Assembly (NCBI GenBank): GCA_035651155.1
Contig: DASRGG010000028.1
Coordinates: 55,041 to 119,040, forward strand
Origin: Candidatus Limnocylindria bacterium
Lineage (GTDB): Bacteria > Chloroflexota > Limnocylindria > P2-11E
Length of the DNA: 64,000 bases
Reading direction: 5' to 3'
A program made the position numbers and the translations under genes. Positions within the stretch are counted from its first letter, which is position 1; every line of letters begins with the position of its first letter. Under the pieces are notes generated by a model, which was given only the letters and a program-made list of their open reading frames with translations, was not told the origin of the DNA and did not search any database. Of the stretch, positions 37,498 to 39,846 are shown piece by piece.

Positions 37498-37908
37498 TTA
37501 GACCCCGACCCTTCGCTTCCCCACCGCCTCGTTCACGTACCGCACGATCTCTTCCAATGAGGCGCCGGGCGGAAAGACCCGCTCCACGCCCACCTTCGCC
37601 AGACCGGGGACGTCGGCCTCCGGGATGATGCCGCCGCCGAAGAGCAGCACGTCGTGCATGCCCTTCTCGCGCATGAGCTCCGACACCCTCGGGAAGATGT
37701 AGTTGTGCGCGCCGGAGAGGAGGCTGATGCCGATGGCGTCGGCGTCCTCCTGCAGCGCCGTCTCGACGACCTGCTCGGGCGTGAGATGCACGCCCGTGTA
37801 GATGACCTCCATACCCGCGTCGCGGAGCGCCCGCGCGACCACCTTCGCGCCGCGGTCGTGCCCGTCGAGGCCCGCCTTCGCGACGACCACCCGGATCGGC
37901 CGCTTCAC
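37498..37908 (-). CDS. icmB: B12-binding small subunit of a split acyl-CoA mutase (isobutyryl-CoA mutase small subunit-like)
   Basis: 136 aa reading [29 protein letters not shown]...[10 protein letters not shown], with the DxHxxG cobalamin-binding motif. Confidence 0.85.
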
Positions 37909-38087
37909 AGCGTCACCCCGAGATCCTTGTGCGGATGCGCGACGACCTCACGCGGCGTCGTGCCGGACGGCAGCCGCTCGTCGCATCGCTCCGCGGGCAG
38001 CGCGTCGACGACCGAGCGGGTCGAGAGATACAGGTGCTCGACGCGCGCGGGCAGCTCGCTAGAAGTACCCAGGGTCTCGGTAGACAC
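37905..38087 (-). CDS. Possible coupled micro-ORF (60 aa) between icmA and icmB
   Basis: GTG start inside the icmA 3' end and a stop that overlaps the icmB ATG (ATGA). It fills a 150-nt gap that is otherwise non-coding in a tightly packed operon. Composition is not R/A-rich noise, and there is no homology. Confidence 0.2.
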
Positions 38088-39846
38088 CGAAGACCTCCTT
38101 CAGGACCTGCACCTGCTCGCCCACGCTGGCGTACGCGCGCGCGCATTCCAGGAACGCGGGCATGAGCTCGGCGCGCGTGTCGCTCTTCGCCGCGATCGCG
38201 GCCTCGCGCAATCGCGCCATCGCCTCGCGCCAGCGGCCGGCGTCGCGCGTCCGGCGCACCTCCGCGAGGCGCTCCACCTGGCGCCGCTCGACCTCGGGAT
38301 CGATCTGGAGGATCGGGATCGCGGGCTCCCGCTCCGTGGCGTACGCGTTGATCCCGACGATGAGCTTCTCCTTCCGCTCGACCTGCTCCTGGAAGCGGAA
38401 GGACGCCTCGGTGATCTCGCGCTGGGGATACCCGCGCTCGACCGCCTCGACCATGCCGCCCATCGACTCGATCTCGCGCAGGTAGCGCGCGAAGCCGTCC
38501 TCCATCCGCTGCGTGAGGTGCTCGAGGTAGTACGAGCCCCCGAGCGGATCCACGGTGTCGGCGACGCCGGACTCGTGCGCGATGATCTGCTGCGTCCGCA
38601 GCGCGAGCGTCACGGCCTCCTCGGTCGGCAGCGCGTACGTCTCGTCGAGCGAGTTCGTGTGCAAGGACTGCGTCCCGCCCAGCACCGCGGCGAGCGCCTG
38701 CAGCGCGACGCGGACGACGTTGTTGTACGGCTGCTGCGCGGTGAGCGACACGCCCGCGGTCTGCGCGTGCGTGCGAAGCTGCAGCGCGCGCTCGTTCGTC
38801 GGGTGGTAGCGGCGCTCGATCTCGCGCGCCCAGATGCGCCGCGCCGCGCGGAATTTCGCGATCTCCTCGAAGAAGTCGTTGTGCACGTCGAAGAAGAACG
38901 AGATGCGCGGAACGAAGTCGTTCACGTCGAGGCCGGCATCCACGCCCCACTTCACGTACTCGAGGCCGTCGATGAGCGTGAACGCGAGCTCCTGCAGCGC
39001 CGTCGCGCCGGCCTCGCGGATGTGATAGCCGGAGACCGAGATGGTGTTCCACTTGGGCACCTCGCGCGCTCCGAAGCGGAGCGTGTCGACGACGAGGCGC
39101 ATCGCGGCACGCTCGGGGACGATCCATTCGCGCTGCGCGATGTACTCCTTGAGCGCGTCGTTCTGGATCGTGCCGCCGAGGGCCGTGAGCGGATAGCCGC
39201 GCTTCTCGCCGGCGGCGAGGTACATCGCCCAGACGATCGACGCGGGGCCGTTGATGGTCATGGACGTCGTCACCTCGTCGAGCGGGATCCGGTCGAAGAG
39301 GATCTCCATGTCGCGCAGGGTCGAGACCGCGACACCTTCGCGGCCGACCTCGCCACGCGACAGCGGATCGTCCGCGTCGCGGCCCATGAGCGTGGGCATG
39401 TCGAACGCGGTCGACAGGCCGGTGACGCCGTGCCTCAGGAGGTAGTGGAAGCGCTCGTTGGTGTCCTCCGCCGACCCGAAGCCCGCGAACTGGCGCATCG
39501 TCCAGAGCCGGCTCCGGTACATCGTGGGATGGATGCCGCGGGTGTACGGGAACTCGCCCGGCGCGCCGAGATCGCGGGCGGCATCGAAGCCTTCGAGGTC
39601 GTCGGCGGTGTAGAGCGGCTCGACCGGCTCGCCCGAGATCGTGGTGAACGCCTTCCTGCGCTCCGGGCGCTTCTTCACCGCGGGCCCGTAGACCTTCTCG
39701 AGCCATGCCTGCTTCGCGGTTCTGCCCGATCTCTGGCTACCGTCAGGAGACGCGCTCAGGGCTGGTGGATTCGCTCCTCGCGCACGCTCACTCCGTTGGC
39801 TGAACAGGGGCCCCTTCCCCTGAGCCGCTCGTCGCTCAGCTTTCAT
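38059..39846 (-). CDS. icmA: Acyl-CoA mutase large (catalytic) subunit with the isobutyryl-CoA-mutase-type Phe/Gln signature
   Basis: [15 protein letters not shown] has Phe where methylmalonyl-CoA mutase has Tyr89, and [20 protein letters not shown] has Gln where it has Arg207. The ATG at 39846 overlaps the ACAD stop (ATGA). The N-terminal ~50 aa are low complexity, so the true start may be further downstream. Confidence 0.8.

Follow-up and report, generated by a model that had tools for sequence, protein, structure and literature searches.

A probable split isobutyryl-CoA mutase in a beta-oxidation gene cluster of a Candidatus Limnocylindria bacterium

Does a gene that bears the public name "methylmalonyl-CoA mutase family protein" encode a methylmalonyl-CoA mutase (MCM), or an enzyme that acts on a different acyl-CoA? 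The question is raised by a stretch of 64,000 nucleotides from a Candidatus Limnocylindria bacterium (Chloroflexota; contig DASRGG010000028.1, G+C ~71%), here called the window. It contains exactly two genes for mutase large subunits, at 38059-39846 and 14439-16046, both on the minus strand, as determined by tblastn searches with the window proteins. In the same 64 kb the searches detected one gene for a B12-binding small subunit (37498-37908) and one for a MeaB-type chaperone (35001-35945). A first-pass annotation, made from the sequence alone, had described the two large subunits and had proposed that the one at 38059-39846 belongs to isobutyryl-CoA mutase (ICM) and the other to MCM; that there are two, both on the minus strand, is confirmed. 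We refer to the gene at 38059-39846 as icmA and to its small-subunit neighbour as icmB. Our analysis suggests that the two genes quite probably encode a split, adenosylcobalamin-dependent ICM (EC 5.4.99.13) in a conserved oxidative operon. What results is a well-founded re-annotation to an enzyme type already known, one that follows the Phe/Gln rule, and not a new kind of system.

Active-site signature and family placement

In MCM, Tyr89 and Arg207 (numbering of P. shermanii MutB) contact the carboxylate of the substrate. Phe and Gln at these two positions are the established signature of ICM, and in 2-hydroxyisobutyryl-CoA mutase (HCM) Ile90 and Asp117 bind the substrate hydroxyl. These rules were cross-checked by residue numbering. 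The proteins were aligned with MAFFT and the columns were anchored on MutB (sequence of PDB 5req/1req). The references were P. shermanii MutB and human MCM (PDB sequences), two proteins of HCM-type clusters (HcmA of M. petroleiphilum and Xaut_5021 of X. autotrophicus), the HCM-like protein of a Mycobacterium sp. ELW1 plasmid, Xaut_5043, the PGAP-named IcmF of P. megaterium and Streptomyces IcmA orthologues; 150 representatives of 50%-identity clusters were also included. Xaut_5043 is presumably the native pivalyl-CoA mutase (PCM) of Kitanishi et al. 2015 (Xaut_5043/5044) and is here called a putative PCM. For Streptomyces IcmA the evidence consists only of the real loci retrieved with a probe sequence, which are 93-97% identical to that probe (80 loci kept, L012-L091; S. 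cinnamonensis is not among them).

Table 1. Residues aligned with five active-site positions of P. shermanii MutB.
Protein	89	116	207	243	244
Window, 38059-39846	F120	A147	Q238	Y274	H275
Streptomyces IcmA	F	A	Q	Y	H
IcmF (P. megaterium)	F	A	Q	Y	H
HCM references	I	D	Q	Y	H
Xaut_5043	L	L	N	Q	H
Window, 14439-16046	Y65	A92	R183	Y219	H220
All MCMs	Y	A	R	Y	H

The icmA product has neither Tyr89 nor Arg207, while both are present in the 14439-16046 protein (Table 1). Phe120 shares its column with MutB position 89, IcmA Phe80 and HcmA Ile90, and Gln238 with MutB Arg207 and IcmA Gln198. The signature columns are correctly aligned, since the residue numbers that the alignment gives for Streptomyces IcmA (Phe80/Gln198) and for HcmA (Ile90/Asp117) match the published ones. 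Misalignment of the Phe/Gln positions, which would have undermined the proposal, is excluded by this agreement. Both motif sites quoted in the first-pass annotation were found in each protein; one residue of the icmA product had been misquoted (IVPP, actually IVPE), and this does not affect the signature.

Positions 89 and 207 co-vary in the family. Among 161 members there are 74 with Y/A/R and 21 with F/A/Q, no sequence combines Tyr with Gln, and three combine Phe with Arg, one of them being the engineered Y89F crystal mutant. The equivalents of MutB Gln197, Tyr243, His244, His328 and Gln330 are all conserved in the icmA product. It also has pocket-flanking motifs in common with Streptomyces IcmA, e.g. 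a motif ending in (A/S)DDP and IAQ(R/K)EW.

The alignment also shows variability beyond these classes. Roughly one third of the 150 nearest representatives (P0121-P0270) have signatures that fit no class considered here (e.g. V/V/G, I/I/N, L/T/-, Q/D/H), and several F/A/Q representatives are long fusions (677-913 aa) in which, unlike in IcmF, the mutase domain is N-terminal. The cluster membership lists gave no informative names for the representatives, and the distant F/A/Q representatives P0121 and P0159 lie on short contigs with uninformative gene context. Split mutases of a Marinobacter plasmid (L010:7911-9566) and of Streptomyces sp. N50 (L009:~7926-9560) retain Tyr89 and Arg207, whereas MutB Tyr243 is replaced by Ala or Ser; they carry 'AGAH'/'AGSH' and 'RQYSGFG', and the Marinobacter gene is flanked by genes for an enoyl-CoA hydratase and a CoA transferase. 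The N50 plasmid match was rejected as IcmA (Y/A/R with Ser at position 243), and so were plasmid matches of S. parvulus and S. canus, which are split MCMs (Y/A/R).

The placement of the whole protein was investigated with leave-one-out profile hidden Markov models built for four classes, i.e. ICM, split MCM, HCM and classic MCM. The icmA product scored 810, 729, 702 and 631 bits respectively, a margin of 81 bits for ICM over split MCM. The profile of the protein's own signature class scored highest for all 12 sequences tested, the window protein included. Streptomyces IcmA still matched its own class best with all Streptomyces sequences withheld (714 vs 668 bits), and the 14439-16046 protein scored higher with split MCM than with ICM (769 vs 738 bits). 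In a neighbour-joining tree of 65 sequences, built on 499 columns with 100 bootstraps, the icmA product shares a group with Streptomyces IcmA and a homologue from a Deinococcus plasmid (60% bootstrap), all split F/A/Q proteins fall in one clade (39%), and HCM forms a separate clade (100%). Taken together, profiles and tree place the protein in the IcmA group with moderate support, and the signature points the same way, so that the original ICM assignment is upheld. Clustering with HCM or PCM, the outcome that would have spoken against it, was not seen: the protein lacks both Ile90/Asp117 and the L/L/N/Q pattern, and in the tree it joins Streptomyces IcmA.

The closest annotated relative is encoded on a plasmid of Deinococcus sp. 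KNUC1210 (L005:8334-11638; 60.5% identity by tblastn, 61.7% by BLASTP; F/A/Q). The mutase gene sits after meaB there, with an acyl-CoA dehydrogenase gene ~6 kb away, and between meaB and the mutase gene lies an unannotated ORF resembling a B12 subunit; its matches fall into two segments, 9482-9544 and 9535-9873, so that it may be frameshifted.

The icmA product is 100% identical, across the shorter annotated length, to a protein of a Chloroflexota (Ca. Limnocylindria) metagenome-assembled genome at NCBI. The 120 nearest relatives in the list share 81-93% identity with it; for the most part they come from metagenomes and are 555-560 aa long, and their names are generic or missing. The gene has only two possible starts, ATG 39846 (595 aa) and GTG 39678 (539 aa, the NCBI choice). 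ATG 39846 is the better one. The homologues of 555-560 aa have a conserved N-terminal segment (MTIQKSKTxKQxWLDxxYxPA), whose counterpart here lies upstream of 39678, and this ATG also forms an ATGA overlap with the stop codon of the dehydrogenase gene before it. The public 539-aa annotation removes the conserved segment.

The surrounding gene cluster and a possible route

The mutase genes lie in a cluster of 13 co-directional genes, in the order MerR, thiolase, Hbd, dehydrogenase, EtfD-like, EtfB, EtfA, dehydrogenase, icmA, icmB, 136-aa protein, dehydrogenase and MeaB (Table 2). The genes are separated by gaps of 0-150 nt or joined by 4-nt ATGA overlaps. All the neighbours that had been listed earlier, i.e. 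meaB, etfAB, acyl-CoA dehydrogenases (three in number), hbd, thiolase and a MerR gene, are present. The matches to PF01642 and TIGR00641 assign the icmA product to the fold of the methylmalonyl-CoA-mutase substrate domain, and the stand-alone 136-aa B12-binding subunit that had been described after the mutase is borne out by its two family matches and by the motif DGHDRG (DxHxxG, base-off/His-on), next to which SLLSG and GGG are found.

Table 2. Features of the 13-gene cluster and the comparator mutase gene (all on the minus strand).
Feature	Coordinates	Strand	Details
MerR-family regulator, first gene of the cluster	48395-48796	minus	PF13411, PF00376, PF09278; 133 aa from GTG 48796
Acetyl-CoA C-acetyltransferase (thiolase)	47223-48398	minus	Thiolase_N, Thiolase_C; TIGR01930 427 bits (cutoff 240.55)
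3-Hydroxybutyryl-CoA dehydrogenase (Hbd)	46340-47203	minus	PF02737, PF00725; NF004474 389 bits, slightly under the 408-bit cutoff
Short-chain (butyryl-CoA-type) acyl-CoA dehydrogenase	44793-45980	minus	395 aa; top PDB matches are mitochondrial short-chain enzymes, 444 bits
EtfD-like membrane Fe-S/CCG oxidoreductase (ETF:menaquinone oxidoreductase type)	42764-44785	minus	673 aa; two CCG domains and a 4Fe-4S dicluster
EtfB	41870-42643	minus	257 aa; PF01012 113 bits; GAGGAG upstream of ATG 42643
EtfA	40995-41873	minus	292 aa; PF00766 and PF01012; GAGGAGG upstream of ATG 41873
Acyl-CoA dehydrogenase (short-chain-like)	39843-40994	minus	383 aa; Pfam Acyl-CoA_dh; best PDB match 351 bits, short-chain enzyme 315 bits
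IcmA-like acyl-CoA mutase large (substrate-binding) subunit	38059-39846	minus	595 aa; PF01642 715 bits over 69-587; TIGR00641 724 bits
IcmB-like stand-alone B12-binding small subunit	37498-37908	minus	136 aa; PF02310 87 bits; TIGR00640 160 bits
Conserved all-helical 136-aa protein, no assigned family	37075-37485	minus	between icmB and a dehydrogenase gene; strong AAAGGAGG ribosome-binding site
Acyl-CoA dehydrogenase (short-chain-like)	35942-37078	minus	378 aa; Pfam Acyl-CoA_dh N, M and C; best PDB match bacterial 1ws9, 389 bits; mitochondrial short-chain enzymes ~305 bits
MeaB-type G-protein chaperone	35001-35945	minus	314 aa; PF03308 315 bits; TIGR00750 354 bits (cutoff 240.75)
MCM-type mutase large subunit (comparator)	14439-16046	minus	residues in Table 1

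The spacing is tight throughout. The thiolase start overlaps the MerR stop (ATGA), MeaB ATG 35945 overlaps the stop of the dehydrogenase gene before it by 4 nt, and the dehydrogenase gene at 39843-40994 is apparently translationally coupled to icmA. The MerR reading frame is open up to 48856, with an AGGGAGG site 5 nt before GTG 48796; in the relatives the gene at this position encodes 132-133 aa. ATG 45980 of the butyryl-CoA-type dehydrogenase has GGAGG upstream. The promoter scan returned no sigma-70-like promoter in 33800-51000, and the terminator-like matches fall inside genes. No cobalamin riboswitch was found in the window.

The same gene order is found in three relatives (L093, L094 and L095), whose mutases are 88%, 82% and 81% identical to that of the window. 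Of these, L094 and L095 have the MerR gene, and L093 alone has Hbd. All three have the helical 136-aa protein in the same position. This protein has no Pfam or NCBIfam match; among the 120 listed of its 707 homologues none has a Pfam domain or a name beyond 'hypothetical', and its AF2 model (pLDDT 86) matches only generic helical repeats. The relatives also have a gene with a DinB_2/DUF1706 domain (160-578 aa) between icmA and icmB (L093:11682-13418, L094:11727-12209, L095:11736-13403). At this junction the window has a 150-nt gap (37909-38058) and no DinB_2 gene.

The only PDB match of the 673-aa Fe-S protein is 9ojn_A (440 bits), which is probably M. smegmatis EtfD. PMC13083937 reports a cryo-EM structure of M. 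smegmatis EtfD and cites 9OJN once. According to the same paper EtfD wires the electron transfer flavoprotein (ETF) to the menaquinone pool, as shown with butyryl-CoA-driven assays.

A coherent route can be proposed from these genes. Phe and Gln in place of Tyr89 and Arg207 would make the pocket non-polar and suited to the methyl group of butyryl-CoA or isobutyryl-CoA, i.e. to an uncharged C4 acyl chain, with the residues of the radical chemistry (Tyr243, His244, Gln197 and others) unchanged. MeaB would act as the G-protein chaperone that loads the IcmA/IcmB pair. Isobutyryl-CoA derived from valine or isobutyrate could then be converted by the mutase to n-butyryl-CoA, and this to crotonyl-CoA by the short-chain acyl-CoA dehydrogenase, whose electrons would pass via EtfAB and the EtfD-like membrane Fe-S protein to menaquinone. 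Crotonyl-CoA would be hydrated by a crotonase encoded elsewhere, which the route needs because no enoyl-CoA hydratase is among the ORFs screened, and Hbd and thiolase would finally give two acetyl-CoA. The conversion of isobutyryl-CoA via butyryl-CoA to two acetyl-CoA, as it was first proposed, thus keeps its place as the best reading in view of the neighbours and of the conservation of the cluster; the missing crotonase speaks against it. The genes present, their signature residues, the family placement and the conservation of the cluster are observed directly, while the substrate, the catabolic direction, the valine or isobutyrate source and the control by the MerR-family regulator are inferred. 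The MerR gene heads the cluster here and in two of the three relatives, and no MerR operator was identified.

Alternative readings and other parts of the window

Several observations weigh against the assignment or the route. The icmA product is more similar to split MCMs (54-55% identity) than to Streptomyces IcmA (51%), the values for HcmA, Xaut_5043 and IcmF being 47%, 38% and 35%; overall BLAST identity was rejected as a class criterion, as ICM and split MCM cannot be told apart by it. The deep support for the F/A/Q clade is weak. The top PDB match is HcmA (4r3u, 551 bits), although this mainly reflects that no IcmA structure is in the PDB match list. The Streptomyces orthologues are linked to the S. 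cinnamonensis enzyme by their length of 566 aa and by residue numbering, not by the S. cinnamonensis sequence itself. As to the route, no crotonase, branched-chain keto-acid dehydrogenase or CoA ligase/transferase was found in the cluster, nor a crotonase, keto-acid dehydrogenase or CoA ligase in the other window ORFs screened, and three acyl-CoA dehydrogenases are more than a simple route requires.

A second methylmalonyl-CoA mutase, or an ethylmalonyl-CoA mutase, would agree with the public names, with the generic family models (PF01642, TIGR00641) and with the 54% identity to the MCM-type protein of the window. It is very improbable, since both carboxylate ligands are replaced, the MCM equivalog NF006944 is matched with 606 bits, under its 876-bit cutoff, the operon contains no epimerase or carboxylase, and a true Y/R paralogue is present elsewhere in the window. 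For the ethylmalonyl-CoA enzyme the sole argument is the absent carboxylate-binding Arg207, the reference set being one that contains no characterised Ecm/MeaA. An HcmAB-like HCM can be considered just as improbable. With that enzyme the protein shares the PTLMG motif and Gln at position 207, its best structure match is found there, and Hbd genes accompany HCM clusters as well. However, Ile90 and Asp117, i.e. the I/D/Q pattern seen in all three HCM references and in two further representatives, are replaced by Phe and Ala, the score is 108 bits lower with the HCM profile than with that of ICM, the HCM clade is fully separate in the tree, and the acyl-CoA ligase gene found in 3/3 HCM clusters is absent here. 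The Leu/Leu/Asn/Gln pocket of the putative PCM is not found either, the window protein having F/A/Q/Y.

Other branched substrates, such as isovaleryl- or pivalyl-CoA and C5 isomers, are a less remote alternative for an ICM-type enzyme, though still an unlikely one; here the dehydrogenases would serve leucine or isoleucine thioesters. LiuR, a MerR-family protein, regulates leucine and isovalerate genes in Proteobacteria, and two of the three acyl-CoA dehydrogenases are not clearly butyryl-specific. IcmF carries an identical F/Q signature, and it is also able to convert isovaleryl-CoA and pivalyl-CoA into each other (PMC10481361). On the other hand, the pocket of Xaut_5043 is quite different, Hbd and an acetoacetyl-CoA-type thiolase suit a C4 route, one dehydrogenase (44793-45980) is clearly of the short-chain type, and the cluster has no methylcrotonyl-CoA carboxylase or HMG-CoA lyase. 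A slightly less likely possibility again is that the same enzyme runs in reverse and makes isobutyryl-CoA from butyryl-CoA for iso-branched starters or valine-related precursors. The reaction is reversible, the Streptomyces enzyme links the butyrate and isobutyrate pools in polyketide precursor supply (PMC2847961), and anaerobes isomerise butyrate to isobutyrate (PMC7764203). But the mutase gene is coupled to those for dehydrogenases, EtfAB, the EtfD-like protein, Hbd and thiolase, which form an oxidative module, and no fatty-acid or polyketide synthase genes lie nearby. A split ICM that feeds isobutyryl-CoA into butyryl-CoA oxidation remains the reading that we prefer.

A wider scheme may be sketched, which we regard as speculative and on balance doubtful. 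In it, Limnocylindria-type Chloroflexota would route the carbon of valine or isobutyrate wholly to acetyl-CoA via the 13-gene ICM, beta-oxidation and EtfD operon, bypassing the canonical way from methacrylyl-CoA to propionyl-CoA, and the helical 136-aa protein and the DinB_2 proteins of the relatives would be accessory factors of the mutase or of MeaB.

The second mutase gene, at 14439-16046, had been implied to be of the MCM type. This agrees with its Y/R signature, and a carboxyltransferase gene (21126-22808) lies ~5 kb away. Neither a B12 small subunit nor MeaB is encoded next to it, and within the 64 kb both are found solely beside the ICM-type gene. The Brevibacillus and Streptomyces split MCMs that we retrieved are unlike it in having the small subunit directly downstream. 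The single IcmB/MeaB pair of the window might also serve this unpartnered large subunit.

Elsewhere in the window, the gene for a formate dehydrogenase alpha subunit (26363-29512, minus strand) has one in-frame stop at 28883-28885, in the motif EQQARV*HGPTVVSLAATFGRGAMTN. This stop is a selenocysteine codon, because an Rfam SECIS_3 match (28830-28888, 63 bits, at the gathering score) sits exactly there. Close by lie genes for FdhE (25572-26423) and FdhD (30286-31149) and one for an NrfD-like membrane protein (23855-24889).

The value of the finding lies in annotation, and knowledge of acyl-CoA mutases in general is unchanged by it. The public name given to this protein and to hundreds of close metagenomic relatives would conceal a different reaction. 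An ICM in an operon for the oxidation of butyryl-CoA, tied to the quinone pool by an EtfD-type protein, offers a testable picture of the use of valine, isobutyrate or butyrate in a lineage of abundant, uncultured soil and freshwater Chloroflexota, and it flags a B12 dependency there.

Comparison with known systems

The Fe-S protein of the window resembles the systems in which mycobacterial EtfD or the DUF224 Fe-S oxidoreductase of Syntrophomonas works with EtfAB, in that its gene adjoins etfBA and acyl-CoA dehydrogenase genes. M. smegmatis EtfD is longer (1042 vs 673 aa), and the function of the window protein is a predicted one.

HcmAB (A. tertiaricarbonis 4r3u; M. petroleiphilum L002) is likewise a split enzyme with a MeaB-like chaperone and Gln at position 207, and it is the closest solved structure. 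The HCM clusters differ in that they encode a GntR or FCD regulator as well as an acyl-CoA ligase, and the enzymes in that they have Ile90/Asp117 where the window protein has Phe/Ala.

IcmF (C. metallidurans 4xc6; P. megaterium L092) has the same F/A/Q/Y/H residues and the same three modules, i.e. a B12 domain, a MeaB-type GTPase and a substrate domain. The PGAP-named icmF of P. megaterium lies beside two acyl-CoA dehydrogenase genes, a context similar to that in the window. It differs in being a single polypeptide of ~1080 aa, whereas the window has three separate genes, and the fused-IcmF model NF045497 is matched with 314 bits against a cutoff of 1500 bits.

The closest likeness is to Streptomyces IcmA/IcmB, the system characterised in S. 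cinnamonensis. Both are split, the large subunits are of similar length (~566-595 aa), and the F-A-Q-Y-H pocket, the IAQ(K/R)EW motif, the best profile match and the subclade in the tree are common to the two. The small subunit of S. cinnamonensis has, like the icmB product, 136 aa. Streptomyces IcmA has an insertion of ~20 residues (RAHPDGQHPxGPITSG) that the window protein lacks, and the hosts belong to different phyla (Actinomycetota vs Chloroflexota). The organisation of the genes differs as well. In Streptomyces no small subunit is encoded within 5 kb of icmA (80 out of 80 loci) and MeaB is found there in only one locus out of 80, whereas in the window icmA, icmB and meaB are united in one operon with the genes of beta-oxidation.

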